The notes: generated by a model not told the origin, from the sequence alone. A stretch of 53,639 nucleotides of DNA from an uncultured Flavobacteriia bacterium (GCA_903887095.1 CAISOQ010000203.1:1-53639); one strand, 5' to 3'. Counted from the first letter of the stretch, positions 22,611-41,975 are shown. Translations and numbers: made by a program.

Positions 22611-24533
22611 ATGAAAGAAACCTCATTCATTGAACAAAATCGGAAAAAGTGGGACCGCTTTGAGAAGCTTTATGCCTCAAAATCTGAGGACCCAGAGGAA
22701 TTGAGTGATCTTTATATGGATATCACGAATGATTTAGGTTATGCCCAAACATTTTACAAAAGAAGAACGGTACGAGTTTACTTGAATCAATTAGCACAGA
22801 AGGTTTTTTCAGGTGTGCACAAGCAAAAAGGAGAACCGTTGAAGAAACTGTTGCAAGTTTGGCAAGTTTCTCTTCCACTTGAAATTTACAGGTCAAGGAA
22901 AAATTTACTCTTTGCACTCATTGCCTTTTTAGTTTATGCCATTCTTGGTGCGGTTACTACCTCTATTAATCCTGACTTTCCTCGAATTGTTTTAGGCGAT
23001 GGATATGTAGAGATGACGCTTGAAAATATTGCAAAGGGAAATCCATTGGGTGTATATGAGTCTGATGATCAAACAGCTATGTTTATACGGATTACGACCA
23101 ACAATTTAAAAGTTGCTTTTTTGACTTTTTTTGTGGGATTTTTTTTCACGATTGGCACGCACCTACTTTTATTCTCTAATGGTGTCATGTTGGGGTCCTT
23201 TCAAAGTTACTTTTATACGAAGGGGCTGCTACTAACTAGTTTTTTGGGAATTTGGATTCATGGTGCTTTTGAAATTTCTTCCATTGTGCTAGCAGGTGGC
23301 GCAGGAATAACTGTTGGAAGCGGATTACTCTTTCCAGGCTCTTACAGCAGGTTGCAAGCACTTCAATTATCAGCCAAACGAGGACTTAAAATTATGTTAA
23401 GTCTTGTGCCTTTCATTATTGCAGCTGGTTTTCTTGAAAGTTTTGTTACCCAAAATTATGATGTGCTTCCAGATTGGTCGAAATGGCTAATCATCGCTTT
23501 TTCTTTCTCAATGATTCTCTTTGTTTATGTAATTTATCCAATAATCGTTGCACGCAAATACCCACATTTGATAGAAAATGAAGAATTATTCGCTAGAAAA
23601 GAGAGGAAAGAATGGTCGCTTTATAAGTTGAGAAACACAGGGGATATTCTTTTTGATTCCTTTCAATTTTATCGTCTGAATTTCGGAAAATTCATACGAC
23701 CAATCATTTCTTTTGTTTTACCATTGGTATTGATTTTAGTAGCCATTCAAGATTATTCAAGAATCGATGATTTAGAAATTGAGCATTGGTTTGATTGGAT
23801 GGGACAACTAACCGTGATGATGGGTTTTGATTTTGTTTCTATTCGAGATGTTGTAATTGCCTTCTCATGGACTTTTGTCTTTTCATTTATTTTCCTCTCG
23901 GTGTTTTGGACTTTTTTATCCATAGACAGCGAATTCAAAACAAAAGATTTTATGCTATTTGTAAGAAAAAAATTAATGCAGGTTTGGTTGGCGAATTTAT
24001 TACTTTATATCGTTGTCTTTTGCTTGCCTTGGTATCTTCTTTTAGGCGCAATTTTGCTTGTTCCATTGATCAGTTTACTTGGACCTACAGTAGTGTTTTA
24101 TGAAAATGGAACATTAAAAGAAAAACTATCAAAGGGCTTTCGTTTTGGAACGGGAAGTTTCGGAAATATGCTAATTTCCCTTATCGTTACCGTGCTTTTA
24201 ATTTGTTTGTTAATGCAGCCTTTTGCTTTGGTTTTTAGCATTCACAATGAATACACGAATAAACCTCAAATAAAGGATTTGCTCGACATGTTTGTCGAAA
24301 CAGCAAGGCGATTCTTTGAATTGTATTCTGAAAATGCTGTGGTCTACGGAAATATAATTAGACAAATTTTTTACCTGACATTTATATTCATATTGGTACC
24401 GTTTTTTGCTGTACTTGCGGGCGTTTGTTACTTTTCTGAAGTTGAGAAAAAGGAAGCGAGATCGCTGAAGCAGGCATTTCAGCAATTTGGTAAAACAAAC
24501 CGTTACAAAGAGTCAAAAGAAGATTTTGAATAA
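22611..24533 (+). CDS. Polytopic membrane protein: SpoIIM-like (DUF95) N-terminal half fused to a second multi-TM module
   Basis: The N-terminal ~330 aa resemble the stage II sporulation protein M family (cytoplasmic helical head MKETSFIEQNRKKWDRFEKLY, then 5-6 TM). The C-terminal ~300 aa add more TM helices. Confidence 0.6.
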   Translation: MKETSFIEQNRKKWDRFEKLYASKSEDPEELSDLYMDITNDLGYAQTFYKRRTVRVYLNQLAQKVFSGVHKQKGEPLKKLLQVWQVSLPLEIYRSRKNLLFALIAFLVYAILGAVTTSINPDFPRIVLGDGYVEMTLENIAKGNPLGVYESDDQTAMFIRITTNNLKVAFLTFFVGFFFTIGTHLLLFSNGVMLGSFQSYFYTKGLLLTSFLGIWIHGAFEISSIVLAGGAGITVGSGLLFPGSYSRLQALQLSAKRGLKIMLSLVPFIIAAGFLESFVTQNYDVLPDWSKWLIIAFSFSMILFVYVIYPIIVARKYPHLIENEELFARKERKEWSLYKLRNTGDILFDSFQFYRLNFGKFIRPIISFVLPLVLILVAIQDYSRIDDLEIEHWFDWMGQLTVMMGFDFVSIRDVVIAFSWTFVFSFIFLSVFWTFLSIDSEFKTKDFMLFVRKKLMQVWLANLLLYIVVFCLPWYLLLGAILLVPLISLLGPTVVFYENGTLKEKLSKGFRFGTGSFGNMLISLIVTVLLICLLMQPFALVFSIHNEYTNKPQIKDLLDMFVETARRFFELYSENAVVYGNIIRQIFYLTFIFILVPFFAVLAGVCYFSEVEKKEARSLKQAFQQFGKTNRYKESKEDFE

Positions 24534-25371
24534 ACAGTTGCAAATAGTTCTTTTCCTTTTTTTGAGTTGTTTTTCAATGGCTCAGGAATCTTCTGCTGGA
24601 AAAGAAATTATTGAATACCGCAAAGATAAATCGTACAAAGGACCACAAGAATGGGAAAATTATGGCCCAGCTGCAATCAGATGGTATGACAACACCTATG
24701 AGGGCTCAACAGATCAGGGGGGCGAGGGCATCAGTGATGATGATGCAATGATTGACAGGGATCGATTCAATAGATATGGTGACAATGGTTCGGGTGACCT
24801 TGATAAGGGTCCGATGATTAAAAAACCAGAACCTGTTGAATTGCCGGATATTGATGTGCCAGACTATGAAGGTCCTGATTTGTTGCCTGATGTCGATTTA
24901 TCTGATAGCTCTCCAAATTTTTGGAAAACACTGCTTTTTCTCCTCTTGTTTATTGCTGTTATCGTTGGCGTATATTTTTGGTTAAAAAACCACTCGCCAC
25001 GAGCAAATGCCGCCCTGACTTCAGAGGAGTTGGAGTGGAATCCTGAATTAGTCACACAAAGTGAGTTGGATCGCCTTTTAGAGAAAGCACTTAATGAAGA
25101 AAGATACAGGGAAGCAATCCGGATTTATTTTACTGCCATCTTGAAGGAATTGATTCGTTTGAAATTGATTCGTTGGAAAAAAGAAAAAACCAACCATCAT
25201 TATCAGCTTGAATTGACAGGAAAAAGCATGCATGAAAATTTTTCAAAATGCGTGAATGTTTATGAATTGGTGTGGTATGGAAAATACGAGATCAACCAAG
25301 TTGTATTTAATGAATTAAAGCCAACATTGCATTTGTTTTACCAGCAATTAACGGAGTTAAATGTCGAATAA
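24526..25371 (+). CDS. DUF4129 domain membrane protein
   Basis: The C-terminal region EERYREAIRIYFTAILKELIRLKLIRWKKEKTNHHY...YELVWYGKYE fits the DUF4129 pattern, with one central TM. The start is uncertain: TTG 24487 (track), TTG 24526 (gives a signal-like N-terminus) or ATG 24577. Confidence 0.6.
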   Translation: MNKQLQIVLFLFLSCFSMAQESSAGKEIIEYRKDKSYKGPQEWENYGPAAIRWYDNTYEGSTDQGGEGISDDDAMIDRDRFNRYGDNGSGDLDKGPMIKKPEPVELPDIDVPDYEGPDLLPDVDLSDSSPNFWKTLLFLLLFIAVIVGVYFWLKNHSPRANAALTSEELEWNPELVTQSELDRLLEKALNEERYREAIRIYFTAILKELIRLKLIRWKKEKTNHHYQLELTGKSMHENFSKCVNVYELVWYGKYEINQVVFNELKPTLHLFYQQLTELNVE

Positions 25372-27085
25372 GATCAAACTACTTCTTGTTTGCGGTTTAG
25401 CAGCAATTGTTGCTTTACTCATGCTGTTTACAGATGTTGGCTCCCAGAATCGAACGGCTGAACCTACCTATGTTTCGGCAGATTGGTCAAAAAAATACGG
25501 ATTGAAGGATTTCGAGCCGAAAGGATTTTTCTTATTTAGTAAATTTTTGAAGGAGCGATTAACTGGTCGGGGCGAGATCTATCCATTAACCAATGCCCAA
25601 ACCATTGATTCAGTGGTGGATTCAGGGTCGACACTTTTTTTTATAGGCGAAAATTTCGCATTGAAGGATAGGGAGTTGCGCGATGTTATTGAAAAGGTTG
25701 AAGAAGGAAATACCTTGTTTTTAAGTTGTGAACACATGACGCAGAATGTCATAGACATGTTGTTTGATTTCTACACAATGACCTATGAATATGAACCAAA
25801 GACAACTGTACATGTGTTGGACGAAATAACGCCATTTCGCAACAATAAAGAAAAATCATTCAGTTTTAATGCTGTTTTTCAAAATGACACAATAACGCGT
25901 GAATGGCGTGTTTTTGATGAAATCACCATTGTTGGGGAGGATCTTCAACTGATTACTTCTATCCAAAAAGGTGGGGACTATCCAAATTTTATTGTTTTTA
26001 AGCGTGGAAAGGGGAAGATTTTCTTGCACACGACTCCTGAATCATTGCTAAATTATCAGCTACTAAAGAAGGATGGGGCTCTGCATGCAAAATTTATTTT
26101 ACAAGCCTTTCCAAAAGACCAAAACGCATATTGGTTGGATTTTGCACAACTGACACGTTCAAAAGAGGAACCAAATTATGATGATTTTAGTGACGATAAA
26201 AAGGACAGGGATGAAAGCTATTTGCAGTTTTTATTTAGTAATGCAAACTTGCGCATTGGTATGTTACTTGCATTCTTTGGATGCATCTTATTTTTAATTT
26301 TTAGATCCAAACGTCAACGACCAGTTATTCCATTAAAACAGAAAGCAAGAAATACTTCTGTTGAGTTTTCCCGCACAGTTGCTTCAATTTTTTTGAGTAG
26401 ACAAAATCCACATGGGCTGCTTCAATTGCAAAAAAAGAATTTCTATGATCTTATTGCGCGTTATTTTTTCATCGATTTGAATGACACCAATAATGTACGC
26501 GCCATTGAATCGCTTTCGCAAAAAGCAAACGTGCCTGTTGATGAAATTCAAAAACTATTACAATTATTGGAGACAAAGGTAAAAATTAACGTGGATGAGG
26601 TCTATCTTTTTGATGTGAATAGGCGCATTAAATTATTTATTGCATCATCTGGAATTCAGCGCGGAACGCTTTCAGAAGGAATAAAGAAGTTTGAAGGTGT
26701 GGTAAGACGAGAATTGTTGATTTCAAGTGTTGCATTGATAAGTGGTCTTTTCGTGTTTCTTTTTGGACTTTGGTTGTTGACTAATGGCAGCGGTTTGGGT
26801 GCCGTCTGCCTTCCAATTGGGACAGTAACCATTTTAATTGCTATTCGTCGTTTTTCTCGTCCGGTTCTTCAGTATCAATCAAAAGCACTCATATACCACC
26901 CACTTTTAGCTAAGAAAAAAGACTTTTTATGGAAGGATTTATTGAGTGTTGAAAATGAGCAAAACGGGCTGCAATTCTATTTTAAAGATGGCCAAAAATT
27001 AAAAATAAAATGGAGCGAAATCAGTAGATTTGATCAAGTTCATTTCGAAAGATTTGTGAATAATTACCTTAAAAACAACAAGTAA
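25361..27085 (+). CDS. DUF4350-like membrane protein with a C-terminal 2-TM plus beta-rich extension
   Basis: N-terminal TM, a large extracytoplasmic domain, a central TM, then a helical region. Position and architecture match the DUF4350 partner of MoxR/DUF58 operons. It overlaps the upstream gene by 11 nt. Confidence 0.55.
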   Translation: MSNKIKLLLVCGLAAIVALLMLFTDVGSQNRTAEPTYVSADWSKKYGLKDFEPKGFFLFSKFLKERLTGRGEIYPLTNAQTIDSVVDSGSTLFFIGENFALKDRELRDVIEKVEEGNTLFLSCEHMTQNVIDMLFDFYTMTYEYEPKTTVHVLDEITPFRNNKEKSFSFNAVFQNDTITREWRVFDEITIVGEDLQLITSIQKGGDYPNFIVFKRGKGKIFLHTTPESLLNYQLLKKDGALHAKFILQAFPKDQNAYWLDFAQLTRSKEEPNYDDFSDDKKDRDESYLQFLFSNANLRIGMLLAFFGCILFLIFRSKRQRPVIPLKQKARNTSVEFSRTVASIFLSRQNPHGLLQLQKKNFYDLIARYFFIDLNDTNNVRAIESLSQKANVPVDEIQKLLQLLETKVKINVDEVYLFDVNRRIKLFIASSGIQRGTLSEGIKKFEGVVRRELLISSVALISGLFVFLFGLWLLTNGSGLGAVCLPIGTVTILIAIRRFSRPVLQYQSKALIYHPLLAKKKDFLWKDLLSVENEQNGLQFYFKDGQKLKIKWSEISRFDQVHFERFVNNYLKNNK

Positions 27086-28128
27086 TGTCAGAAGAAATTA
27101 ATGATATCCAATCAAATGAAATGTCTAACGAATCCAATAATTCTAGTCAGGAAGGATTTGGTTTTGAAAGGTCAAAAGCGGAACAAATATGGTTGACAGG
27201 AAAAGTAAGTGAAGTGAGGGCTTTGCTATCGCAATATGTTATTGGTCAACATGAAGCCATCGAATTGATGCTTACTGGCATTTTTTCAAATGGCCATTTG
27301 TTGTTGGAGGGAGTTCCTGGTGTTGCAAAAACACTTTCAGCAAAAGTATTGGCAAAAGCACTCAACATAGATTTCAGCAGAATTCAGTTTACTCCGGATC
27401 TTATGCCGTCCGACGTGATAGGAACCAGTGTTTTCAATATGAAAGAAGCAACTTTCAATTTTAAAAAGGGCCCGGTATTTTCAAACATCGTATTAATTGA
27501 TGAGATCAATCGTGCGCCTGCAAAAACACAGGCAGCGCTTTTTGAAGTTATGGAGGAGCGACAAATAACATACGATGGCGTTCATTACAATATGGAATTT
27601 CCATTTTTGGTTGTAGCTACTCAGAATCCAATTGAGCAAGAAGGAACCTACAACCTTCCGGAAGCGCAGCTTGATCGCTTTTTATTCAAAGTAAAAGTGC
27701 ATTATCCTGAATTAAATGAAGAGGAAGAAATTATGCAACGCTATAAAAACAATCTTTCCTCACCTGACCTAACACAAATTAAAGCAGTGTTGAACGCAGA
27801 AGAAATTCGCCGAGCACAAAAGTCTGTTGAGGATGTTGTTATAGAGGACAATTTGGTGAAATACATTGCAGCTATTACGCTGAAAACCAGAAATCATGGA
27901 AAGATCTACTTAGGAGGTTCACCGCGTGCTTCTTTGTCAATGCTAAAATCATCAAAGGCAATAGCAGCAATCAAAGGAAGAGATTTTGTTACGCCAGAAG
28001 ATATTCAATTTGTTGCAACACCTGTTCTCAATCATAGAGTTATTCTTACACCCGAAGCAGAGATGGAGGGTGCAACGCCGGAGCAACTAATTACAGAAAT
28101 TATTCAATCGATAGAAGTGCCGCGTTGA
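27085..28128 (+). CDS. MoxR-family AAA+ ATPase
   Basis: LLLEGVPGVAKT (Walker A), VLIDEINRAP (Walker B), ATQNPIEQEGTY.LPEAQLDRF and GGSPRAS. Confidence 0.93.
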   Translation: MSEEINDIQSNEMSNESNNSSQEGFGFERSKAEQIWLTGKVSEVRALLSQYVIGQHEAIELMLTGIFSNGHLLLEGVPGVAKTLSAKVLAKALNIDFSRIQFTPDLMPSDVIGTSVFNMKEATFNFKKGPVFSNIVLIDEINRAPAKTQAALFEVMEERQITYDGVHYNMEFPFLVVATQNPIEQEGTYNLPEAQLDRFLFKVKVHYPELNEEEEIMQRYKNNLSSPDLTQIKAVLNAEEIRRAQKSVEDVVIEDNLVKYIAAITLKTRNHGKIYLGGSPRASLSMLKSSKAIAAIKGRDFVTPEDIQFVATPVLNHRVILTPEAEMEGATPEQLITEIIQSIEVPR

Positions 28129-29459
28129 TGCGATTCATTGGGTCCATATTTTTAAGCCGAATGTTCTTTTGGGTGTATGCAGCGGTAATTTTGCTGTTTG
28201 TAACTGCGTATGTTTTCCCGTGGATGAGGTTGTTGGCTTTTACAGCCCTATTTGTTCTAATAGGCTTGACAATCATTGATGCCCTCTTACTTTTTCTTCA
28301 CAAGGAACCTTTGAGATTTGAACGAAAAATAACCGCTCGCATGAATTTGGGAGACCAAAATGAGGTAACGTTGATGGTAACAAATGATTCAAAGCAGCCA
28401 GTTTTTGTGAAATTGTATGAATCTTTTCCGAGAGAAATTGCTGACCGATCTGTAATGTTTGCTGGACTTATTTCAGCAAACCAAGTTATGCACCACTCCT
28501 ATTCTTTTTGTCCCAAAGAACGCGGAAATCATCATTTTGGCAGAGCATATTTGATGATGTCTTCTTTATTGGGCTTGACTGAAAGAAGAATAATTTTTCA
28601 AGCAGAGCAGCAAGTTGAGGTGTATCCATCCGTTTTGCAGATGCGAAAATATGAGCTTCTTGTTTTTCAGCAACAAAAACTGAGTTCAGGAATTAAAAAA
28701 ATTAGAAGACTAGGGAATACCAACGAGTTCGAGCAAATAAAATCATATGTCCAAGGGGATGACATAAAACGCATCAACTGGAAGGCAACGAGTCGAAAAA
28801 ACGAGTTGATGACGAATCAGTACCAAGAAGAAAAGTCGCAACACATCGTTTGTATTATTGACAAAAGTCGCAGTATGCAGAACCGATTTGAAGATATGAC
28901 TCTGCTGGATTACGCAATCAATTCTGCGCTTGTCTTTTCAAACATTGCATTAAGAAAAGGTGATAAAGCGGGATTGTTGACTTTTGCAGATAAAATTGGA
29001 TCCCAATTGCTTGCGGATAGAAAAGCCGGGCAATTGCGCAGAATAATGAAAGAACTATATAATCAGCGGACACATTTTCTTGAGCCAAATTATGAGTTGC
29101 TTTTTCAAACGATACGCCGAACTGTTAAAACAAGGTCTCTATTGGTACTTTTCACACAGTTTGAAACAGAATTTGCGATGCGACGAAATCTTCCAATGCT
29201 TCGTCGATTGAATCAACAGCATTTATTGTTAGTTGTCTTTTTTGAAAACACTGATTTAAAAGAAATGGCAAATAACCCAGTCGCGACATCAGAAGAATTG
29301 TTTCAATCTGTAGTTGCTGAGCGCATGTCTACGATCCAACACCGCATTGCGCTGGAATTAAATAGAAATGGCATTCAAACTGTTTTAACTACCCCTGGAG
29401 AATTGAGTGTTAAAACAATCAACAAATACATTGAGTTAAAAGCGAAAGGTGCGATATAA
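28128..29459 (+). CDS. DUF58 domain protein (vWA-like MoxR partner) with N-terminal TM helices
   Basis: The signature EFEQIKSYVQGDDIKRINWKATSRKNELMTNQYQEE followed by IVCIIDKSRSM. The ATG at 28128 overlaps the MoxR stop (TGATG). Confidence 0.88.
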   Translation: MRFIGSIFLSRMFFWVYAAVILLFVTAYVFPWMRLLAFTALFVLIGLTIIDALLLFLHKEPLRFERKITARMNLGDQNEVTLMVTNDSKQPVFVKLYESFPREIADRSVMFAGLISANQVMHHSYSFCPKERGNHHFGRAYLMMSSLLGLTERRIIFQAEQQVEVYPSVLQMRKYELLVFQQQKLSSGIKKIRRLGNTNEFEQIKSYVQGDDIKRINWKATSRKNELMTNQYQEEKSQHIVCIIDKSRSMQNRFEDMTLLDYAINSALVFSNIALRKGDKAGLLTFADKIGSQLLADRKAGQLRRIMKELYNQRTHFLEPNYELLFQTIRRTVKTRSLLVLFTQFETEFAMRRNLPMLRRLNQQHLLLVVFFENTDLKEMANNPVATSEELFQSVVAERMSTIQHRIALELNRNGIQTVLTTPGELSVKTINKYIELKAKGAI

Positions 29460-29507: not shown

Positions 29508-29933
29508 TTATTTCTTCTCACATTTTGAAACATCACCAGTGTCAGGATCTTTCATCCAAAGCTCTTTGCTTGTTAGTCGCGTGATAATGGATGTTGTTGT
29601 AATAGATTGTGTTTGTCCAAACAAAGAATAAGTAACAGTTGCCTGCAATTGTTCTTTATCATTTGCAAACTGCCATGTTCCAGTATAAGTTGTTGAACCA
29701 GAAGTATAAGTATACGTACCGTCTTTGTCAAGTGTGAAAGTGTCAGTTGAAGAATCAGCTGTTACTTGACCATCAGTTCCATCAACATATTCTACTGGAT
29801 CCCAAGTTCCTGAAAGACGTGCCTTTTTAGTTAATAAAGAAAGTCCTGGACCATCTTCATATTTTCCACAAGAAGCAAAAACAAAAGTCAATCCAGCAAG
29901 TAGAAACAAGCTACGGTTAATCATTTTTTTCAT
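29508..29933 (-). CDS. Small lipocalin-like lipoprotein
   Basis: Signal peptide with lipobox (LTFVFASC) and an LSGTW...TGTWQF pattern typical of lipocalin-like domains. Confidence 0.65.
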   Translation of the reverse strand: MKKMINRSLFLLAGLTFVFASCGKYEDGPGLSLLTKKARLSGTWDPVEYVDGTDGQVTADSSTDTFTLDKDGTYTYTSGSTTYTGTWQFANDKEQLQATVTYSLFGQTQSITTTSIITRLTSKELWMKDPDTGDVSKCEKK

Positions 29934-30052: not shown

Positions 30053-31594
30053 ATGAGTAGAGATAAAGTCCTAATCGATAAACGAGAAGCCTCTAAGCTA
30101 GGTGGCGGCCAGCCCCGCATTGACAAACAGCATCAGCAAGGAAAATTGACAGCTCGCGAGCGGATAACTTTGCTTCTGGATGAAGGCACTTTTCAGGAAA
30201 TCGGACAATTCGTTGAGCACAGAGCAACCACATTTGGACTCGAAAAGCAGCACTTTGCTGGGGATGGAGTGGTGACGGGATTTGGGACGATTCACGGAAG
30301 ATTGATTTATGTTTTTTCCCAAGATTTTACTGTTTTAGGTGGCTCATTGTCTGAAACGCATGCTGCAAAGATCTGCCGCATTATGGATTTAGCCATGAAA
30401 AATGGTGCTCCAGTAATTGGATTAAATGATTCGGGTGGAGCAAGAATACAGGAAGGTGTTGTTTCTTTGGCTGGTTATGCAGATATATTTTATCGCAACA
30501 CAAGAGCATCTGGTGTGGTACCTCAGATTTCGGTGATCATGGGACCATGTGCTGGGGGAGCAGTTTATTCACCTGCATTGACAGATTTTATTTTCATGGT
30601 GGAGGAAACCTCTTACATGTTCGTCACAGGACCAAACGTGGTCAAGACAGTTACACACGAAGAAGTCAGTTCGGAAGAGCTTGGGGGTGCTAAAGCACAT
30701 GCTGAGAAATCGGGAGTAAATCATTTTACCGCTACAAATGATGTAGAATGTTTGAAAAAGGTACGTGATCTCGTTACTTATTTTCCTCAGAATGCCAGTG
30801 AAATGGCACCTCAACCGCAGCAATTTAGTTTCAATCCTTCAAAAAAAGAAGCCATTCGTTCAGTGTTGCCTGAAAATGTGAATGTTCCATACGACATTCG
30901 AAAAGTGGTAGAATGCGTTATCGATGACAATAGTTTTAGAGAAGTTCAAGAGGATTTTGCTAAAAACATTGTAGTAGGATTTGCTCGTTTAGAAGGGCGT
31001 TCTATTGGTATTGTTGCAAATCAACCGGCTGCTTTAGCTGGTGTTTTAGATATAGATGCATCACGAAAAGGCGCTCGATTTGTTCGTTTCTGTGATTCGT
31101 TCAATATTCCGTTATTGGTTTTTGAGGATGTACCTGGATTCTTGCCTGGAACAGATCAGGAATGGCGAGGAATCATTACGCATGGCGCAAAATTATTGTA
31201 TGCTTTTTCGGAAGCAACCGTACCTCGAATTACAGTAATTACGCGTAAAGCATACGGCGGTGCTTTCGACGTTATGAATTCTAAAAATATTGGGGCTGAT
31301 ATGAACTATGCATGGCCAACAGCAGAAATAGCTGTAATGGGAGCGAAGGGCGCGGCTGAAATTATTTTCAAACGCGAAATAGCAGAAGCAGCCAATCCAG
31401 AGGAAAAATGGAAAGAAAAAGAAGCAGAATATGCCGATCTTTTTGCCAATCCATACCGCGCAGCGGAAAGGGGAATTGTGGATGATGTCATCTTGCCCGA
31501 AGAGACAAGAGACAAACTGATTGCGGCATTCAAAATGTTGGAAAACAAGGCGGAAACATTACCGTACAAAAAGCATGGGAATATCCCCTTGTAA
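30053..31594 (+). CDS. Acyl-CoA carboxylase carboxyltransferase subunit (propionyl-CoA carboxylase beta / methylmalonyl-CoA carboxyltransferase family)
   Basis: Strong family resemblance throughout ([61 protein letters not shown]). The track start at 30038 is TTG. Confidence 0.92.
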
Positions 31595-31595
31595 T

Positions 31596-32546
31596 TTAGT
31601 TGTGCAAAATATCAATTGCCTGGGCATATTTTGATTTTGTAACCGGCCCAAGGTTGTATTTTGTTTCAGCTTCCTTTTGAAAGCTGTCTATTAGTTGAGC
31701 TCCGCGTTCAGGAATGAAAAATTTGTTTTCGACTTCAAATTCAATCAAATCAATTGTGCGGGGATTTTCTTCAAGCGGCACAAATTGACTTTTGTCTAAT
31801 GAAGCTTCAAAAATCCAATTCAATGTATCGTTCTCCTGTAATTTTTTTGGCAATTCTTTGAACGCAATTTGATTTCGAATTGTAGATCTATAGAGCGAAT
31901 CGTTTTGTTCTGGATCTATCACCCCGTGGAATCTGCTTCTTAATGATTTTCCAACCAAAACAGGTGCAAATGAACCAATCATTGCATCGTTAAAAAGAAC
32001 CGCATTCAGTGATTTTAATTGTTGAAAGGGAAGAATGGGTGCATTTGACTTGAAAATCAACCATTCTTGCAAGGTCTCTCGGCATTTTTGCAACGCTATA
32101 GTTGGAATTTTAGTGTCAGCAAAATCAAACAGTGGGTCGATAATGTCGGTTAGGTGAATGATCGATGTGTCTTGAAGAAATTTATAGAAAGACAAATCGG
32201 ATTCTTCTACTTCCATTCTAACACCATTTAGGTCAACCATTTCGCTTTTTAATTGAAAACTATAGCTAACCCCATTCTCATTCGAAATGCGTTTTCTAAA
32301 GCGCAGAGAGTAACCATTGCGCTTCAAAGTATAGTCCGGTGAATCGAGGTACAAATCATAGTAAACATCATCTGCGTGATGCAAAAGAGAAATGCCACCA
32401 ATCGTCGGGTCTTTCTTAAGTGAAACTTCAAATGTATCCGCATTCTTTACACAATATTTGCGCTGCTCTTCAATGCCTTGGGAATAAGAACACGACAACT
32501 TTATAAGGAATATAAAGCTTAAAACGAAGTTTGTTTTATTTGCCAT
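31596..32546 (-). CDS. CYTH-like (triphosphate tunnel metalloenzyme fold) protein with a signal-peptide-like N-terminus
   Basis: CYTH strand pattern read in order: FEVSLKK, VYYDLYLDSPDYTLKRNGYSLRFRKR, YSFQLKS, RMEVEE, VGKSLRSRF, FEASLD, IEFEVEN and a C-terminal KSKYAQAI. The N-terminus is MANKTNFVLSFIFLIKLSCSYSQ. Confidence 0.6.
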   Translation of the reverse strand: MANKTNFVLSFIFLIKLSCSYSQGIEEQRKYCVKNADTFEVSLKKDPTIGGISLLHHADDVYYDLYLDSPDYTLKRNGYSLRFRKRISNENGVSYSFQLKSEMVDLNGVRMEVEESDLSFYKFLQDTSIIHLTDIIDPLFDFADTKIPTIALQKCRETLQEWLIFKSNAPILPFQQLKSLNAVLFNDAMIGSFAPVLVGKSLRSRFHGVIDPEQNDSLYRSTIRNQIAFKELPKKLQENDTLNWIFEASLDKSQFVPLEENPRTIDLIEFEVENKFFIPERGAQLIDSFQKEAETKYNLGPVTKSKYAQAIDILHN

Positions 32547-34194
32547 AATTGCGCATTCTTCCTTTGAAATTAATGTAACTAATTGGATAAGTTGCCAAAT
32601 CAGCTGCCTTTAGTAGCTTGCCTTTTTTTACTACACATTTTCCGTTTTCATGAATGGTAAGTTGCTTTGTGAATGCTATTGGATGGGGATCTAGAACATG
32701 AAATGCCCTGAGAATAGACGCACGTCGTGATGCCATTTTATGAAAATAAAGCTCACCTATTGCCTTTGGCCAATGCGCCGCTTCAATCATTGATCGCAAT
32801 CCAACAGAATCAATGGCAGCTATTTTCAATGCCATCCAACGCAAGTCCTCGTAATTCGTTTTCTTGTAAAGATCGACAAGTGAATTCATGCGACTGGTAA
32901 ACACCAGTTTTTGACCTTTTATTTTCACTGCCTCCCAAGGAAGTTCATTGACTAATCCGACCTTGAAATCTTGATTTAGCCATGAAATATGGACGCCCAT
33001 ACTTGTTCCAAGATCAGAAAAAATGGCGGATAACCTATAGTGTTTATTGCCTTTGTTAACAAGCGTTAATGCTGTGTTATCTTCTTTTGTATCCCAGTTG
33101 TCAATAAAGATCTGCGCCAAAAGCGAACCCCGCAATTCCATGCGTGAGTCGTTTTTTAAAGCATAAGGCATAAAGGAACCTAATCGTTTTACTCGATCTG
33201 GCCGAGCCTCTAACGAACATTCGACAAATTGAGCATAAGGCTTTCCAATGAATGGGGTTAAGGATGGAAGGGACTTTGCCATCTCCCCTGTTACTTTTCC
33301 AGTTTTACCCATATAGTTTTGAATGTTGACACCGTATTTTATGTTGAGGCTATCAAGCAATTCTTCAGGCGTCTTCACATTAGAAACACCATCAAAAATT
33401 AAAATGAGATTTTCAGTGTAATAATAAGGATGGTCAACATCATAACCCAGTCCAGCAAACAGTCTTGAGCAGAAGATATCGGTGTGCACTTCATCTCCCC
33501 ATTTTATAATCCATTTATTTTCAATGTCTAAATCAAGGACTTCAAATTTTGGAGCAGATCCTCCTATGCTGAATTGATTCGCCAAAACAATCATTTGGGT
33601 TTTCGCATTGATCTTTTTTTTCTTGGCAAGCAAATCAAATCGTTCTTCGGGACACAGACTATCAACTAACTCAGTAAAGAAAGAAGAATAAATCGATTCG
33701 TATTCAGTTGAAAAGTTTGCTTGTGGAATAGCAATACGACGGGAATTTTTGCTTTTTAGGGTGTTCAGAAAAAGTTGTTTCTTTTCATGAAATGAAAGTT
33801 TAATTGTTGAATTACTTTCTGCTTTTTGAATGAATGATAACCGCATCCACTCCAGTTGGTAGACTAATTCTATTGTTTTAGTATCAATTTTTTTCTTGAG
33901 TAAATAGGCTAACTCTAATTGTTCACTGATCGTTTTAACGTAACGGATAAATGCTTTTTTTCTGGCAGGCAATAAAAATCCATCTTTGTAAAGTGCATTG
34001 GGATCTGTAAGTAAATTACAAGTAGACCTTATGTGCTCCAGGTTTACGAGTGAATCTTTCTGGAAATAAAACGACAGTTCTACAGGCATAGGGATAGTAC
34101 TTGCCACAGGAGATGCAACTTGAGAGTAGATAGGCGACGTGGAATAAAAAACAAATAGCAAAAATGTTTTCAGTAGCCCTCGTAATAGAAACAT
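32536..34194 (-). CDS. Hypothetical exported protein with atypical protein/lipid-kinase-like motifs
   Basis: The first ATG (34194) gives MFLLRGLLKTFLLFVFYSTSPIYSQ, which looks like a signal peptide. WIIKWGDEVHTD is Lys/Glu-like, IFIDNWDTKEDN is catalytic-loop-like and FSDLGTS is DFG-like. The kinase call is inference only. Confidence 0.5.
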   Translation of the reverse strand: MFLLRGLLKTFLLFVFYSTSPIYSQVASPVASTIPMPVELSFYFQKDSLVNLEHIRSTCNLLTDPNALYKDGFLLPARKKAFIRYVKTISEQLELAYLLKKKIDTKTIELVYQLEWMRLSFIQKAESNSTIKLSFHEKKQLFLNTLKSKNSRRIAIPQANFSTEYESIYSSFFTELVDSLCPEERFDLLAKKKKINAKTQMIVLANQFSIGGSAPKFEVLDLDIENKWIIKWGDEVHTDIFCSRLFAGLGYDVDHPYYYTENLILIFDGVSNVKTPEELLDSLNIKYGVNIQNYMGKTGKVTGEMAKSLPSLTPFIGKPYAQFVECSLEARPDRVKRLGSFMPYALKNDSRMELRGSLLAQIFIDNWDTKEDNTALTLVNKGNKHYRLSAIFSDLGTSMGVHISWLNQDFKVGLVNELPWEAVKIKGQKLVFTSRMNSLVDLYKKTNYEDLRWMALKIAAIDSVGLRSMIEAAHWPKAIGELYFHKMASRRASILRAFHVLDPHPIAFTKQLTIHENGKCVVKKGKLLKAADLATYPISYINFKGRMRNYGK

Positions 34195-34204
34195 CTGTGT
34201 GATT

Positions 34205-34792
34205 TTACAATCGAATACCAAGAGATAGCGTTGGCACAAATGTAATTGGTTTTAATTTTTCTGTTCGCTTTGAATCACTGCTCCACGGACTGATGTATGC
34301 AACCCCACGAAGCTGAGGATTTACATAGAGCATTTGCTTGTACAAGTACAATTCGTAACCCACATAAGCAGTAGCAAGAAAGGTTTCAATTCGGAGTTGT
34401 TTCAATCCCGGAGCTTCAATATTAAAGTATTCCCATCCTACAATTGCTCCAATTACTGGGTTACTTTCTGTTTTGAACAATGGAATTTTATATCGAGCAA
34501 CTGCAGCCAATTCAAATCCTAATCGAGCATTCGTGCTTTCAGGAACGTTTTCAAACATGCTCTTTTTTAAACCATCGGGCACATCAAGAGCGAGGGAATA
34601 AAGGCCTATATTAAAGTCATGTTTTTTAGACACTTTATACATGATTTGTCCACCAAAACCTTTGTAAATAAAACTCAAGGGCTCAACCTCCAAACGCCAT
34701 TTTTTCGATGCATCCTGGGTTTCTGATTGGGCTAACAAAATATTCGTCAAAAATAGAAAAGACCAAATGCCTATGAACACTAACTTTTTCAT
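34205..34792 (-). CDS. Small putative outer-membrane beta-barrel protein
   Basis: The ATG at 34792 gives MKKLVFIGIWSFLFLTNILLAQ (signal peptide). The rest shows alternating hydrophobic beta-strand periodicity with aromatic girdle residues. The track start at 34885 is TTG. Confidence 0.5.
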   Translation of the reverse strand: MKKLVFIGIWSFLFLTNILLAQSETQDASKKWRLEVEPLSFIYKGFGGQIMYKVSKKHDFNIGLYSLALDVPDGLKKSMFENVPESTNARLGFELAAVARYKIPLFKTESNPVIGAIVGWEYFNIEAPGLKQLRIETFLATAYVGYELYLYKQMLYVNPQLRGVAYISPWSSDSKRTEKLKPITFVPTLSLGIRL

Positions 34793-38288: not shown

Positions 38289-41200
38289 ATGAAATCGTTT
38301 CTCTCTTTATTTATTCGAACAAGAATTAATTCTTATCTGGTCAGGTACAACAATTCATCTGTTAAAAATTCCATAATTGGATTAAGTTGTTTGTTTGTAT
38401 CATTCTTTGCTGTTACGGAGCTAAGAGCTCAAACTACATTGGTTACTGGCGACATCGCAGTAATTGGATACAATACCAATGGTTCTCCAGACAATTTTTC
38501 AATCCTTATTCTGAAGGATCTTTCTGCTGGTACCACGTTCTACGTTAATGACAATGAATTAGCATCTTCTTCCTCAACTTCATTCACTGATTTATCTGAG
38601 GGTGAAGGGTCATTTACTGTAAAATCCGGCCAAACTATTGCGGCTGGTACAGTCATTAACTTACCATATGGTAGCAATACAGCAGTGAATGCATCTACTT
38701 ACGACTGGAGCAATACTAACTCGGGTTTGGGCAACAACAATGAGGAAATCTACATTTATACTGCATCAGCTATAACATCATCGACTCCAGATGCGTTTAT
38801 CTATTTTGCCAAAATTGGATCGTCAACAAGTGCTGTGCCGTCAACTTTATCAACAGGTGTATCTGCGATTACTCCATCGGGTGTCGCTATGAGATACACT
38901 ACTTCAGGGGCATTGTATACGAGTTGTAAATCAGAATTGTTAAATGCAATTGGTAATACAACAACTAACTGGAATTCAACAGGTGCAACGACTTTATCAA
39001 ACTCTGACTGGACGTTCACAGTGCTTCCAACCTGCCCAATAACTGTAAACCTTAGCGTGAGTGCGACAAGTGCGAGTGAGGCAAGTGCGCCATCAATCAC
39101 TATTACAGTCACAGCTTCGTCTGCAGTAAGTGTAGATGAAACCGTTTCGCTTGCAGTGAGTGGTAGTGGAATTGCATCAGGAGACTATAACCTTTCAAAT
39201 ACGACCATTACTATTCCATCAGGTTCAACGACAGGATCCGTTACAATTAGTATAATAGATGACATTCTTATTGAGGGAACAGAGACAGCAACCTTGACCA
39301 TATCAAACCCTTCTGTTGGTTTGACTTTGGGTTCAACAATCACGCAGGACATTACCATTACCGATAATGATTTAGCATCTGTGGTAATTACTCCAACGTC
39401 GGGTGGAAATGCTGTAACAGAAGGCGGTGCAACTGATTCTTACACAGTGGCTTTAAGTTCATCACCAACTTCCGATGTTATTGTTTCTGGAACACCAAAT
39501 TCTCAAGTAGGTATTTCACCTTCAAGTTTGACATTCACTTCTTCGAATTGGAATTCGCCACAAACGGTTACAGTATCAGCAGTTAACGATAATGTTGTAG
39601 AAGGAATTCACTCAGGAAGTATAAGTTATGCGGCAACATCTGCTGATGTTGTATACAATGGGATTTCAATTGCGCCACTTTCTGTTACTATTACTGATAA
39701 CGACTTGATGCATACTGTTGCCTTTGCGAAAGCTGATACTACCATTGCTGAAAACGGCGGGACAGTCAAGATCTGGCTCAAAGTGACAGCTGTTGGGAAC
39801 GCTCCCGGAACAGTTGATTTGTCTCTTTCAAGCGTGAGCAACGCAACGAATGGATCAGATTATACTATTGCATCATCGACACTTTCTATTCCTGCAAATG
39901 CTGTTCTCAATCAATTGATAGGGTTTGATTTAACCTTAAATAATGATGCTGACGCAGAATCAGATGAGTATTTGATATGTCAGCTCACAAATGCAAATGG
40001 CGCTGCAATAACCACGTCAGGAATTAAACAACACACATTGTATATCAGAGATAATGACTCTCCGATTCCAACGCCTTCCAACGCCTTCACGCTAACTCAA
40101 TTGTCTAGTTTCAGTAACGGTGCGACAGGAACAAATTCTGCTGAAATTTCAGCCTACTGCTCAGTGAGTAAACGATTATTTATAGCTAACAGTGTAGCCA
40201 ACCGTCTGGATATTTTAAACTATACCAACCCTTCCAGTCCAACGTTGATTCGATCTATCAACTTGGCCAATGCTCCTTTTTCTGGTTCCATCAATAGTGT
40301 GTACGCAAGCAATGGGAAAGTAGCTTTAGCATTGGAAGGATTATCAGATAAACAAGCAAATGGAAAAGTTGTATTTATAGATACGGCAGGAGCATACATC
40401 AGCGAAGCGCAAGTGGGAGCTATGCCGGATATGGTTGTCTTTAACCATGCAGGCACTAAGGTTCTTACAGCAAATGAGGGTGAACCAAATGCTGCTTATA
40501 CGAATGACCCCGAGGGCTCTGTTAGTATTATCGATATTAGTGCTGGTTTAGCTAGTCCATCCGTAACTACCATAGGCTTTACTTCCTACAATAGTCAAGT
40601 AGCTACTTTAAAAGCTCAGGGAATTAGAATTTTTGGATTGAACGCATCAGTTGCTCAGGATTTTGAACCAGAATACATTACGATTTCTCCAAATGATTCC
40701 ACGGCATGGGTAACTTTACAGGAAAATAACGCCTTAGCTGAAATAAATCTTTTCACCAATACGATTACGAAACTTATTCCACTTGGTTATAAAGACCACA
40801 ACCTCGCGGAGAATACGATAGATGCATCTGACAACTCCTTTGCTACCAATTTTTCATCTTTTCCTGTGAAAGGAATGTACTTGCCTGATGCTATTGCGCA
40901 TTACTCTGTAAATGGAGTCAATTATCTTGTCACTGCGAATGAAGGTGATTCCAGAGCATATTCTGGTTTTTCTGAGGAATCAAGAATTTCAGGTTTGACA
41001 CTTGATGCAACTGCTTATCCGAATGCGACTGAATGGAAAAATAACTCACTTTTGGGAAGATTGAATGCTACAAATAAAACCGGAGATACGGACGGTGATG
41101 GAGACATCGATCAAATCCATGTTTATGGTGCTAGATCGTTCAGTATTTGGAATCCAGCTGCTGCGAATCCTTTGGTTTATGATAGTAAAAATGAATTGGA

Positions 41201-41975
41201 AAAAATCACATTCAATCATCCCACTTATGGTTCGTTCTTTAATATGTCGAATACAGTTGGAACAGGTGCGCTCAAAAATAGAAGTGACGACAAAGGCCCT
41301 GAACCAGAAGGAGTTGCAATAGGTAAGTTAGGTAGTAAAACGTACGCTTTCATTGTATTAGAGCGTATTGGTGGAGTAATGGTTTATGACATCTCAAATC
41401 CTGCAGCTCCTCAGTATGTAACCTATATCAATAATAGACAGGCATCTACAGGTGATCGTGGTGCAGAGGGTATTATTTTCATTGATGCAGCGAGCAGTCC
41501 AAACGGGCTTCCTCTTGTGGTAGTATCAAATGAAGTTAGCAGCACAGTTACTACATATCAAATAAATTGTTTGATACTAAATCCCACCATTTCAGCAGTA
41601 TCAAATACATTCTGTCCAGGATCAAGTACTTCTTTGAGTGTATCGGGAATTTCGAACCCAGCATCTTATAGTTGGTCAAACGGTGCAACAAGTTCAACAA
41701 TCACAACTGGAGACTATGGCACCTATACAGTTTCTATCACCGATGCTAACGGATGCACATATTCAACTCCTGCAAAGGTTCTTGCTAATTGTGATAAACC
41801 TGATCTAAACAATAATGGAATAACGGATGTCGATGATTTCTTATTATTCGCCCCTCAATTTGGATCTTCATGCACTGGATGTACTTCTGATTTTAATCAT
41901 GATGGTGTTGTAAATGTGGACGATTTCCTTCTTTTCGCACCAAGATTCAGCCAAACTTGTAGTTGTGCACCGTAG
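38289..41975 (+). CDS. Giant secreted protein: Calx-beta-type domains, a choice-of-anchor-I domain, an Ig-like module and a dockerin-like C-terminal repeat pair
   Basis: Calx-beta-like segments (e.g. SGDYNLSNTTITIPSGSTTGSVTISIIDDILIEGTE). Choice-of-anchor-I hallmarks are AEISAY, MPDMVVF..ANEGEP..DPEGSVSIID, EPEYITIS..LQENNA, GYKDH, ANEGDSR, GARSFSIW, DDKGPEPEGV and SNEVSSTVTTYQI. The C-terminus is DLNNNGITDVDDFLLFAPQF / DFNHDGVVNVDDFLLFAPRF. Confidence 0.85.
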   Translation: MKSFLSLFIRTRINSYLVRYNNSSVKNSIIGLSCLFVSFFAVTELRAQTTLVTGDIAVIGYNTNGSPDNFSILILKDLSAGTTFYVNDNELASSSSTSFTDLSEGEGSFTVKSGQTIAAGTVINLPYGSNTAVNASTYDWSNTNSGLGNNNEEIYIYTASAITSSTPDAFIYFAKIGSSTSAVPSTLSTGVSAITPSGVAMRYTTSGALYTSCKSELLNAIGNTTTNWNSTGATTLSNSDWTFTVLPTCPITVNLSVSATSASEASAPSITITVTASSAVSVDETVSLAVSGSGIASGDYNLSNTTITIPSGSTTGSVTISIIDDILIEGTETATLTISNPSVGLTLGSTITQDITITDNDLASVVITPTSGGNAVTEGGATDSYTVALSSSPTSDVIVSGTPNSQVGISPSSLTFTSSNWNSPQTVTVSAVNDNVVEGIHSGSISYAATSADVVYNGISIAPLSVTITDNDLMHTVAFAKADTTIAENGGTVKIWLKVTAVGNAPGTVDLSLSSVSNATNGSDYTIASSTLSIPANAVLNQLIGFDLTLNNDADAESDEYLICQLTNANGAAITTSGIKQHTLYIRDNDSPIPTPSNAFTLTQLSSFSNGATGTNSAEISAYCSVSKRLFIANSVANRLDILNYTNPSSPTLIRSINLANAPFSGSINSVYASNGKVALALEGLSDKQANGKVVFIDTAGAYISEAQVGAMPDMVVFNHAGTKVLTANEGEPNAAYTNDPEGSVSIIDISAGLASPSVTTIGFTSYNSQVATLKAQGIRIFGLNASVAQDFEPEYITISPNDSTAWVTLQENNALAEINLFTNTITKLIPLGYKDHNLAENTIDASDNSFATNFSSFPVKGMYLPDAIAHYSVNGVNYLVTANEGDSRAYSGFSEESRISGLTLDATAYPNATEWKNNSLLGRLNATNKTGDTDGDGDIDQIHVYGARSFSIWNPAAANPLVYDSKNELEKITFNHPTYGSFFNMSNTVGTGALKNRSDDKGPEPEGVAIGKLGSKTYAFIVLERIGGVMVYDISNPAAPQYVTYINNRQASTGDRGAEGIIFIDAASSPNGLPLVVVSNEVSSTVTTYQINCLILNPTISAVSNTFCPGSSTSLSVSGISNPASYSWSNGATSSTITTGDYGTYTVSITDANGCTYSTPAKVLANCDKPDLNNNGITDVDDFLLFAPQFGSSCTGCTSDFNHDGVVNVDDFLLFAPRFSQTCSCAP

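Follow-up and report, generated by a model that had tools for sequence, protein, structure and literature searches.

Which function would bring together a kinase-like protein and a CYTH tunnel protein, both seemingly exported and encoded by adjoining genes? The question is raised by a locus of a freshwater Bacteroidota bacterium, analysed within a 53.6-kb stretch of DNA (the window). A first-pass annotation had described three minus-strand genes, with a 10-nt gap between the first two (A stop to B ATG) and an 11-nt overlap between the last two. The open reading frames confirmed this arrangement, together with the gene coordinates and motifs, all on the minus strand.

Arrangement of the locus

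34205-34792, minus strand: gene A, 195 aa counted from the ATG
34237-34244, minus strand: candidate Bacteroidota-type -7 promoter box TACATTTG, weak consensus match
32536-34194, minus strand: gene B, 552 aa counted from the ATG
31596-32546, minus strand: gene C, 316 aa
32536-32546, minus strand: overlap of the B stop and the C start, 11 nt, ATGGCAAATAA

The overlap between genes B and C suggests translational coupling, as far as the sequence can indicate. The candidate -7 box lies within the 3' end of gene A, 43 nt 5' of the B start. Since this motif was not enriched across the window (41 found vs 59 expected), we treat TACATTTG as a consensus match only.

Fold and active site of the gene B product

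Gene B matched no Pfam or NCBIfam model, and no Pfam family was hit even at E <= 1. Database entries label its proteins just 'hypothetical protein'. The fold was judged from an AlphaFold (AF2) model (pLDDT 87.8, pTM 0.88), for which the top five Foldseek PDB chains were those of CtkA and actin-fragmin kinase (AFK), with E values of 2.8e-4 to 1.2e-3 and a probability of 1.0. CtkA (3akl) was matched at E 2.8e-4 with a probability of 1.0, and AFK (1cja) reached the same probability. Fam20C followed with 0.66-0.80, and canonical kinases appeared further down, with low probability. According to this model, gene B encodes a two-lobed protein-kinase-like fold, belonging to the PKL superfamily at the fold level. 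The kinase-like fold proposed by the first-pass annotation was thus recovered by structure comparison, and the motifs on which it had relied (WIIKWG, the catalytic D..N loop and DLG) were present at their sites.

33610-34083, minus strand: N-terminal helical domain of B, aa 38-195, from the secondary structure of the model
33547-33564, minus strand: glycine-rich loop GGSAPK; G212, S213 and K216 invariant
33484-33513, minus strand: strand-3 Lys and start of helix C, WIIKWGDEVH, aa 228-237; K231 and E235 invariant
33076-33105, minus strand: catalytic loop IDNWDTKEDN, aa 364-373, with D368-x-K370-x-x-N373
33004-33018, minus strand: DFG-like metal-binding motif SDLGT, aa 393-397, with D394-L-G396
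32539-32565, minus strand: C-terminal tail KGRMRNYGK, family motif GRxR[N/G]YG

In the model, the GGSAPK loop sits between strands 201-208 and 216-221. Strand 226-231 ends at K231, and E235 stands just before helix 238-248. The N-terminal helical domain contains a conserved basic helix, RKKAFxRHVK, which was found in the homologue alignment. The expected conservation of the putative catalytic residues was borne out, since the Lys/Glu/D-x-K-x-x-N/DLG motifs are invariant across 44 aligned homologues. Among 106 distant relatives, K231 and E235 were kept in 105, D368 and K/R370 in 102 each, N373 in 97, D394 in 104 and G396 in all 106. Judged by these residues, B has a complete phosphotransfer active-site set, comprising the K216 loop, K231, E235, D368-x-K370-x-x-N373 and D394-L-G. 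Of the two kinase flavors considered earlier, the protein-kinase-like one stood. The PI3/4-kinase one was not favored, because the loop reads D-x-K-x-x-N, which is typical of Ser/Thr protein kinases, and because structure comparison also ranked protein kinases first.

The tunnel domain of the gene C product

The claim that the last gene encodes a CYTH domain was upheld by two approaches. Gene C scored 26.1 bits against Pfam PF01928 (CYTH), above the curated gathering cut-off of 23.2. Its AF2 model (pLDDT 91.3) gave 48 PDB matches at E <= 1e-3 in Foldseek, nearly all of them TTM-fold proteins, in keeping with an eight-stranded tunnel. AtTTM3 (5a67, E 4.8e-9), YgiF, Vtc4 and SaTTM were the best matches. 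The tunnel protein also carries helical inserts.

32457-32471, minus strand: N-terminal hallmark EEQRK of C, ExQxK where the TTM hallmark is ExExK
32289-32303, minus strand: basic strand RFRKR, triphosphate-binding RxR; R82 and R84 invariant
31722-31742, minus strand: acidic strand EFEVENK, metal-binding ExE; E269, E271 and E273 invariant

The tunnel residues R82, R84, R203, R205, K100, E102, E112, E115, E269, E271 and E273 are invariant in 40 homologues, and so are E26, Q28, R29 and K30 in the 40 aligned sequences. Profile alignment paired tEeQRKY of C with YEVELKF of the Y. pestis class IV cyclase. The ExExK hallmark is altered in C by a change of its second Glu to Gln, with the first Glu and Lys left in place; one relative, at locus L036, has ExExK. 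Owing to this change, C could bind its ligand and leave it unhydrolyzed.

Published criteria for the cyclase subgroup are HFxxxxExExK, a small residue in place of the first RxR Arg, and Ala in place of the second ExE Glu; thiamine triphosphatases have an aromatic residue in W/YxRxR (PMC8233210). Class IV adenylate cyclase (CyaB), which had been listed among the options for C, is unlikely, because the HF motif is absent and both RxR Args and ExE Glus are kept. The predicted mature protein has only 3 residues ahead of E26. The thiamine triphosphatase pattern did not fit either, the aromatic position being taken by a nearly invariant Ser80. With no HF motif, a small residue ahead of RxR and an intact ExE, C falls into the TTM type under these rules (PMC8233210). 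C is a genuine CYTH/TTM triphosphate tunnel, of the inorganic tri/polyphosphatase type.

Export signals

34730-34792, minus strand: predicted signal peptide of A, MKKLVFIGIWSFLFLTNILLA then Q, cut LLA|Q
34123-34194, minus strand: predicted signal peptide of B, MFLLRGLLKTFLLFVFYSTSPIYS then Q, cut IYS|Q
32481-32546, minus strand: predicted signal peptide of C, MANKTNFVLSFIFLIKLSCSYS then Q, cut SYS|Q

All three N-termini run from K/R through a hydrophobic stretch to a small residue and Gln. The cytoplasmic neighbors aspS, cysS and pccB, inspected in the same way, showed no such N-terminal segment. For B, the hydrophobic region was found in 102 of 111 full-length homologues, followed by the small residue and Gln in 80. 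A signal-peptide-like N-terminus was present in 84/101 homologues of C and 9/12 of A, mostly with Gln behind the small residue. In Bacteroidetes, Gln directly follows the signal peptidase I cut, a regularity known as the Q-rule (PMC5837995, PMC10653852). The cleavage sites predicted for A, B and C from sequence rules and conservation obey it. In C, conservation of Q23 is 90% or higher. It does not extend to Cys19, which makes a lipoprotein unlikely. Distant members of the B superfamily also open with a signal peptide or a lipobox. The signal-peptide-like segments noted earlier on all three products behave as cleavable Sec signal peptides across their families, and B and C both appear to leave the cytoplasm.

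To our knowledge, none of the characterized CYTH enzymes is exported, their usual location being the cytoplasm. The corresponding alternative, that the N-termini are wrong starts or inward-facing anchors and that B and C form a cytoplasmic kinase and triphosphatase, agrees with the SaTTM paper, which describes no exported CYTH member, but it is hardly credible given the conserved N-terminal pattern in most homologues of A, B and C, the short hydrophobic stretches (~12-15 residues) with positive charges ahead, the first tunnel strand of C beginning 3 residues past the predicted cleavage site, and the export signals of the distant superfamily members.

Coupling of genes B and C

C follows B with an overlap in all 33 loci having room for C. 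Of these loci, 27 have an overlap of 11 nt, three of 7 nt and three of 4 nt; in two extra loci reached from the C side it is 1 nt. The pair spans two phyla, being found in Crocinitomicaceae and Bacteriovoracia. The GRxRNYG tail of B, which is flexible in the model (pLDDT ~40), accompanies the coupling: it was found in 33/33 CYTH-coupled loci, whichever the overlap register, and also in L082 and L083. Of the 106 distant relatives, at least 103 lack the tail, and those whose loci were examined have no adjacent CYTH gene. The core of the system is a two-gene overlapping pair, probably translationally coupled.

The proposal of a three-gene module held for the strict B-C pair but not for gene A, which adjoins B in only 20 of ~36 loci whose sequence reaches far enough upstream; in 8 of the 20 it shares the strand of B, and in 12 it is divergent. 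Gene A is a lineage-specific accessory outside the B-C core. It had no match in Pfam, NCBIfam or the PDB. Its period-2 amphipathicity exceeds that of shuffled sequences (z = 3.4), and the last strand (...LPQISLGIRL/F) is conserved, with alternating hydrophobic residues and a terminal L/F. Gene A is a beta-rich orphan, predicted to be exported and possibly a small outer-membrane barrel.

A commoner neighbor than A is a UbiA prenyltransferase (PF01040) with a 163-aa 4-TM protein, often joined by an MMPL exporter. UbiA and the 4-TM protein occur within 6 kb of the pair in 26/40 loci, and in 16/21 of those with long flanks. In L082 and L083, the UbiA, 4-TM protein and MMPL genes are transcribed divergently from B-C. 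None of these genes was found in the window, nor around L001 and L003, which are the closest relatives, and the lipid link is therefore one of association. In Crocinitomicaceae, this association could be partly inherited gene order.

Related systems

CtkA of Helicobacter pylori (PDB 3AKK/3AKL) and AFK of Physarum (1CJA), both atypical kinase-like folds, are the best structural matches of B, with target-normalized TM values of 0.53 and 0.39 and a sequence identity of just 12-14%. Neither phmmer nor a family profile, both run against the PDB, found CtkA or AFK, and Pfam gave no link either; the resemblance is structural only. B differs from the two in an additional helical N-domain of 160 residues, in insertions within its kinase core and in the GRxRNYG tail. 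We know of no CYTH partner for either protein. Fam20C-type kinases are eukaryotic Golgi enzymes fed with imported ATP. These secretory-pathway kinases resemble B in having a kinase-like fold that works outside the cytosol, with a moderate Foldseek match, but they show no detectable sequence relationship and have no TTM partner.

The best structural matches of C, AtTTM3, E. coli YgiF and Sulfolobus SaTTM (E 5e-9 to 8e-7), share its tri/polyphosphatase features, namely the RxR and ExE motifs and the absence of the cyclase HF motif. C differs from them in its signal peptide, the ExQxK hallmark, ~100 extra residues in helical inserts and an obligate kinase-like gene partner.

In Gram-positive Pel loci, a secreted CotH kinase clusters with VTC, a TTM-fold polyphosphate polymerase, and DUF4956 (PMC7112168). 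Mutants in two of the three genes show lowered Pel-dependent aggregation (PMC12345266). Like B-C, they link the gene of a secreted atypical kinase to that of a tunnel-fold protein in an envelope or exopolymer setting, and by analogy these uncharacterized clusters may be regarded as the nearest precedent. B-C is not such a module itself, since B has no hit to CotH (PF08757) and the Pfam match of C is to CYTH (PF01928), not to VTC (PF09359). The window contains no DUF4956 or VTC gene; both share a run of genes with B-C at three Bacteriovoracaceae loci only (L037, L038 and L040). The VTC protein of L037 lacks the signal-peptide-like N-terminus that C has. Our literature search found no paper describing an exported kinase-like/CYTH pair. 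The concept of a secreted kinase with a TTM-fold partner already has a precedent in CotH-VTC.

Proposed function

With the above results in hand, we propose that B-C is an exported envelope phosphoryl-transfer pair, possibly acting on an exported lipid. We give this explanation as a whole a probability of about 45%. Once cleaved by signal peptidase I, B and C would act in the periplasm or the outer envelope, joined in a 1:1 ratio. Their partnership probably depends on the GRxRNYG tail, which could serve for docking or provide an acceptor Tyr. B would place a phosphate on a hydroxyl group of an envelope substrate, and C would bind, supply or clear a tri- or polyphosphate compound tied to the B reaction. 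The likeliest substrate class would be a prenyl-derived lipid, or a protein handling such a lipid; synthesis and export of the lipid would be the task of the UbiA prenyltransferase, the 4-TM protein and the MMPL exporter, whose genes flank most related pairs. Gene A would serve as a lineage-specific outer-membrane accessory. The lipid-substrate idea is weakened by the modeled fold of B, whose best structural matches are protein kinases and not lipid kinases. We know of no ATP available in the periplasm, which leaves the phosphoryl donor for an exported B unexplained.

The supply of ATP would be settled if B and C were secreted effectors with a target cell of another organism, be it prey, alga or host, in or on which they act. 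B would then be CtkA-like, and its CYTH partner would deplete or convert the triphosphates of the target. H. pylori CtkA, the nearest solved structure, is a secreted bacterial kinase, called a 'proinflammatory kinase' in its PDB entry. The B superfamily is expanded in the predatory Bacteriovoracia, including ~1100-aa paralogues bearing signal peptides. Crocinitomicaceae, however, are not known to us as predators. B and C hit no Pfam model besides CYTH, i.e., no known secretion-signal domain was detected, and the C-terminal region of B is much shorter than a type IX secretion domain, which we estimate at ~80 residues. Moreover, the pair is single-copy and flanked by housekeeping genes, its GC content of 0.37 is inside the range of the window, and its steady neighbors are membrane lipid-type genes rather than secretion machinery. 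We consider the effector role unlikely.

The missing periplasmic ATP source would also be accommodated if B were not a phosphotransferase. Kinase-like folds are known to perform AMPylation (SelO) and glutamylation (SidJ), and B could use such a chemistry or act as a scaffold. C would then be the sole hydrolytic enzyme, e.g., a periplasmic tri/polyphosphatase scavenging phosphate, and it does keep the full TTM-type phosphatase residue set except for one Glu-to-Gln change. Nevertheless, the Lys/Glu/D-x-K-x-x-N/DLG residues, invariant in the 44 homologues and kept in nearly all of the 106, argue for catalysis and agree with classical phosphotransfer geometry, and the strict coupling to B together with the B-specific tail argues against C acting alone. 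This explanation is likewise improbable in our judgement.

For the preferred phosphoryl-transfer pair, a more specific version would provide the donor through extracytoplasmic phosphorylation independent of cytoplasmic ATP, in which C uses exported tri- or polyphosphate to power B. The tri- or polyphosphate might be the direct donor, or it might serve to regenerate an NTP from an NDP for B; the polyphosphate could come from VTC/DUF4956-type machinery or another source. The GRxRNYG tail would couple B and C, and the MMPL exporter would deliver the prenyl lipid that B phosphorylates. We regard this version as a long shot. If it were true, it would represent a new means of powering phosphorylation in the bacterial envelope.

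Locus layout and predicted export signals

The module comprises three minus-strand genes, each read as an ORF from its first ATG:

34205-34792, minus strand: gene A, possible barrel protein, 195 aa
32536-34194, minus strand: gene B, kinase-like protein, 552 aa
31596-32546, minus strand: gene C, CYTH/triphosphate tunnel (TTM) protein, 316 aa

A gap of 10 nt separates the A stop from the B start, and B and C share an 11-nt overlap, ATGGCAAATAA. Translation placed every motif quoted in the first-pass annotation, which had proposed an exported A–B–C module, at its reported position. The flanking genes are housekeeping: aspS and cysS are divergently transcribed upstream, and a convergent pccB-like carboxyltransferase gene follows C. 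The stops of C and the carboxyltransferase gene lie 1 nt apart (31592-31598), so that a terminator has no intergenic room. The GC content of the module (0.37) was inside the range of the window; recent horizontal transfer was dropped as an explanation, since the composition showed no anomaly. Among genomes, the best match was a MAG of Crocinitomicaceae; the B protein it encodes is 94% identical.

Scans for sigma-70 promoters and terminators returned fewer matches than in shuffled sequences. A Bacteroidota-type –7 box, TACATTTG, was found within the 3′ end of A (34237-34244, minus strand), 43 nt ahead of the B start codon, where it could permit B–C transcription without A. This type of box was not enriched across the window. 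Elsewhere in the window, five plus-strand ORFs run in series (22611-29459), encoding a SpoIIM-like membrane protein, a Pfam-less product, DUF4350, a MoxR-type AAA ATPase, and a DUF58/VWA protein, in this order. At 29508-29933 (minus strand), a predicted lipoprotein of 141 aa is encoded that has a lipocalin-like domain. The 1228-aa product of 38289-41975 (plus strand), with Calx-beta and choice-of-anchor I domains (E 1.5e-154), is probably a large surface protein.

The N-termini of A, B, and C all contain K/R, a hydrophobic core of 12–15 residues, a small residue, and Gln, giving predicted cleavage sites at LLA|Q, IYS|Q, and SYS|Q, respectively. These export-type N-termini are conserved: the hydrophobic core was present in 102 of 111 full-length B homologues, 84 of 101 C homologues, and 9 of 12 A homologues, and the core with the small residue and Gln in 80, 74, and 9 of them. 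Three cytoplasmic neighbours had far lower N-terminal scores. Gln at +1 follows the Q-rule for Bacteroidetes signal peptidase I substrates (PMC5837995, PMC10653852), and signal-peptide cleavage of all three proteins is predicted. In C, the first tunnel strand starts three residues past the predicted site, which indicates that the hydrophobic segment was added onto the domain. We judged C unlikely to be a lipoprotein (LSC), because Cys19 varies among homologues. Among the rival explanations for the B–C pair, a cytoplasmic location of both proteins is the least likely.

Gene B: an unannotated kinase-like family

No Pfam or NCBIfam model matched B, even at E ≤ 1, and searches of PDB sequences with phmmer and a family profile returned only noise. 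The homologues number well over 100, are chiefly from Flavobacteriales and Crocinitomicaceae, and are all unnamed or 'hypothetical'. A 44-sequence alignment revealed invariant G212, S213, and K216; W228, K231, W232, G233, D234, E235, and H237; N366, W367, D368, N373, and T374; D394, L395, and G396; and, at the C-terminus, G545, R546, N549, Y550, and G551.

The AlphaFold model calculated from this alignment was confident (pLDDT 87.8, pTM 0.88). In the model, a strand ends at K231 and E235 immediately precedes the next helix; a long helix leads to IDNWDTKEDN, and two more strands are followed by SDLG. This placement matches the order of elements expected for a protein-kinase-like fold. The D-x-K-x-x-N catalytic loop has the spacing of Ser/Thr protein kinases. 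A Foldseek search of the PDB put H. pylori CtkA first (E 2.8e-4, target-normalised TM 0.53), and both it and actin-fragmin kinase had a probability of 1.0; Fam20C followed at 0.8, and then many canonical kinases at low probability. On the strength of the model, we assign B to an unannotated family of kinase-like enzymes.

An exhaustive profile search (E ≤ 1e-3) extended the superfamily to 786 clusters at 50% identity, with distant members of 600–1250 aa. The named ones come from MAGs of Bacteriovoracia, 'Deltaproteobacteria', or Riflebacteria. Across 106 distant members, the active-site residues were intact: K231 and E235 were each kept in 105, D368 and K/R370 each in 102, N373 in 97, D394 in 104, and G396 in all 106. 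The kinase resemblance that the first-pass annotation had read from motifs alone was thereby upheld on both counts on which it could have failed, as neither a non-kinase fold nor unconserved catalytic residues were found. A chemistry of B other than phosphotransfer is a rival to be weighed against this fold and these residues.

Pfam searches on ten long distant proteins gave nothing for nine and a sub-threshold Nop5_N match for one. Three of four distant sequences read carry an N-terminal signal peptide or lipobox; the fourth, a 482-aa Riflebacteria protein, has no such N-terminus and is shorter than a fellow cluster member. Paralogues of ~1100 aa (P0278, P0287, P0298, P0323, and P0358 in the representative protein library; locus L080:6001-9204) are longer at the C-terminus by a 500-residue region that matches nothing in Pfam. 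The full sequences of P0278 and P0298 were read, and both start with a signal peptide. P0278 and the cluster of P0287 originate from Deltaproteobacteria and Bacteriovoracia MAGs.

Gene C: a triphosphate tunnel with a modified hallmark

C scored above the Pfam CYTH cut-off, and its structure model was confident (pLDDT 91.3). The structural matches were AtTTM3 (E 4.8e-9), E. coli YgiF, yeast Vtc4, SaTTM, class IV cyclases, and ThTPases, in line with a modelled tunnel fold. Sequence searches of the PDB (phmmer, family profile) were weak, with class IV cyclases the best at E 0.05–0.19. The tunnel residues are intact, and forty homologues share invariant E26, Q28, R29, and K30; R82 and R84; Q98, K100, and E102; R110, E112, and E115; R203 and R205; E247, S249, and D251; and E269, E271, E273, N274, and K275.

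Profile alignment set tEeQRKY of C opposite YEVELKF of the Y. pestis class IV cyclase, and thus the second Glu of ExExK appears as Gln in C (ExQxK). This variant occurs in 40 aligned homologues; the C homologue at L036:1108-2127 has TESERKF, the canonical ExExK. The E-to-Q change may shift metal binding or turnover.

For subtyping, we applied published motif rules (PMC8233210). The mature protein has three residues before E26, leaving no room for the HF motif of the cyclases. Cyclases substitute the first RxR arginine (PMC8233210), which C retains together with the ExE glutamates; a class IV cyclase was rejected on these grounds. The ThTPase aromatic position is occupied by Ser, and this assignment was rejected as well. 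By these rules, C classes with the inorganic tri/polyphosphatase-like TTMs.

Coupling of B and C

Co-occurrence was surveyed in 79 loci of species-representative genomes. C directly followed B in 33/33 loci with room for it, including those of Bacteriovoracia, a different phylum; in nine more, the locus stopped short and the position of C was not scorable. In 27 loci the overlap measured 11 nt; of the other six, three had 7 nt and three had 4 nt. A reverse search from two distant C homologues led back to a B gene directly before each of them, the two genes sharing 1 nt. Putridiphycobacter roseus and Crocinitomix algicola are cultured species that carry the pair. One Bacteriovoracia MAG holds two diverged B–C pairs, L032 (JBKHVI010000048) with a 4-nt and L038 (JBKHVI010000019) with a 7-nt overlap.

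No CYTH gene turned up in the Riflebacteria (family HMM) or Ozemobacteraceae loci that carry distant B-like genes, or beside a 1067-aa Deltaproteobacteria paralogue. The ~1100-aa paralogue examined, P0278, had no CYTH neighbour. The C-terminal GRxR[N/G]YG tail was present on all CYTH-coupled B proteins, in any overlap register, whereas at most three of the 106 distant members have it. The tail therefore goes with the CYTH partner rather than with the overlapped C start. Its conservation as a by-product of the C start was rejected, as the motif survives 4-, 7-, and 1-nt overlaps.

Gene A and other neighbours

Neither family nor structure was matched by A in Pfam, NCBIfam, or the PDB (phmmer and family profile). 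It has a predicted signal peptide, a beta-type amphipathic periodicity (z = 3.4 above shuffles), many invariant charged residues, and a conserved last strand of alternating hydrophobic residues ending in L/F; a small outer-membrane barrel is plausible. A adjoined B in 20 loci (8 co-directional, 12 divergent) and was not found among the Bacteriovoracia loci.

Two genes were commoner beside B–C than A, one for a prenyltransferase of the UbiA family (PF01040) and one for a 163-aa membrane protein with four helices (4-TM). These two lay within 6 kb in 26/40 loci and near B–C in 16 of the 21 loci with long flanks, in varied arrangements and in both phyla (L004-L041, L082, and L083; e.g., L022:1858-2718 and L022:4563-5054; L082:3852-5350). 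The 4-TM protein is rich in conserved His (THRN, HEFIDELHxH); against Pfam, it had nothing above threshold and one sub-cut-off COX4_pro_2 match. An MMPL exporter often joins this lipid-gene neighbourhood, and a Trp-halogenase/geranylgeranyl-reductase-like flavoenzyme, an alpha/beta hydrolase, and fatty-acid-synthase-type genes also recur. Within the window, tblastn found no UbiA, 4-TM, halogenase-like, MMPL, DUF4956, or VTC gene.

In three Bacteriovoracaceae loci, the order was UbiA, 4-TM, B, C, UbiA2, (MMPL), DUF4956, x, VTC. DUF4956 and the polyphosphate-polymerase-type VTC stand in the B–C gene string at L037:9009-10941, and also in L038 and L040.

Discussion

We infer a joint role for B and C in the periplasm or outer envelope. 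B would move phosphate onto a hydroxyl of an envelope substrate, and C would bind, supply, or remove tri- or polyphosphate species. The substrate would most likely be tied to the lipid made and exported by the UbiA, 4-TM, and MMPL genes. It is rather improbable that polyphosphate powers phosphorylation in the envelope. As a rival to this envelope role, B–C may be a secreted effector pair.

The closest precedent is the group of secreted CotH kinases that adjoin Pel loci in company with DUF4956 and the polyphosphate polymerase VTC (PMC7112168). Pel-dependent aggregation of Streptococcus intermedius was lower in mutants of either the kinase or the membrane protein (PMC12345266). B–C shares the phosphoryl-donor gap with these clusters, and the DUF4956 and VTC genes beside it in L037, L038, and L040 are partners known from them. 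Our literature searches brought up no relevant work on exported CYTH proteins, on a flexirubin/UbiA/MMPL link, or on a system that combines a CtkA-like protein with CYTH. The two folds were already known, as was the concept of a secreted atypical kinase partnered by a tunnel-fold protein. The new elements are a kinase family with no Pfam or NCBIfam model and, as read from sequence, a tunnel enzyme itself predicted to be exported, ExQxK as a tunnel hallmark, and a partnership-specific tail on B.

We know of no ATP supply outside the bacterial cytoplasm, and extracytoplasmic phosphorylation in bacteria is poorly understood for this reason. The present results add a sizeable kinase-like superfamily that had no annotation and, within it, one subfamily bound to a predicted exported triphosphate-tunnel enzyme. 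Together with CotH–VTC–DUF4956, B–C suggests a recurring pairing of exported kinases with tunnel-fold phosphate enzymes. As the B–C pair is small and soluble, with clear mutable active-site residues, it makes the phosphate-donor question directly testable.
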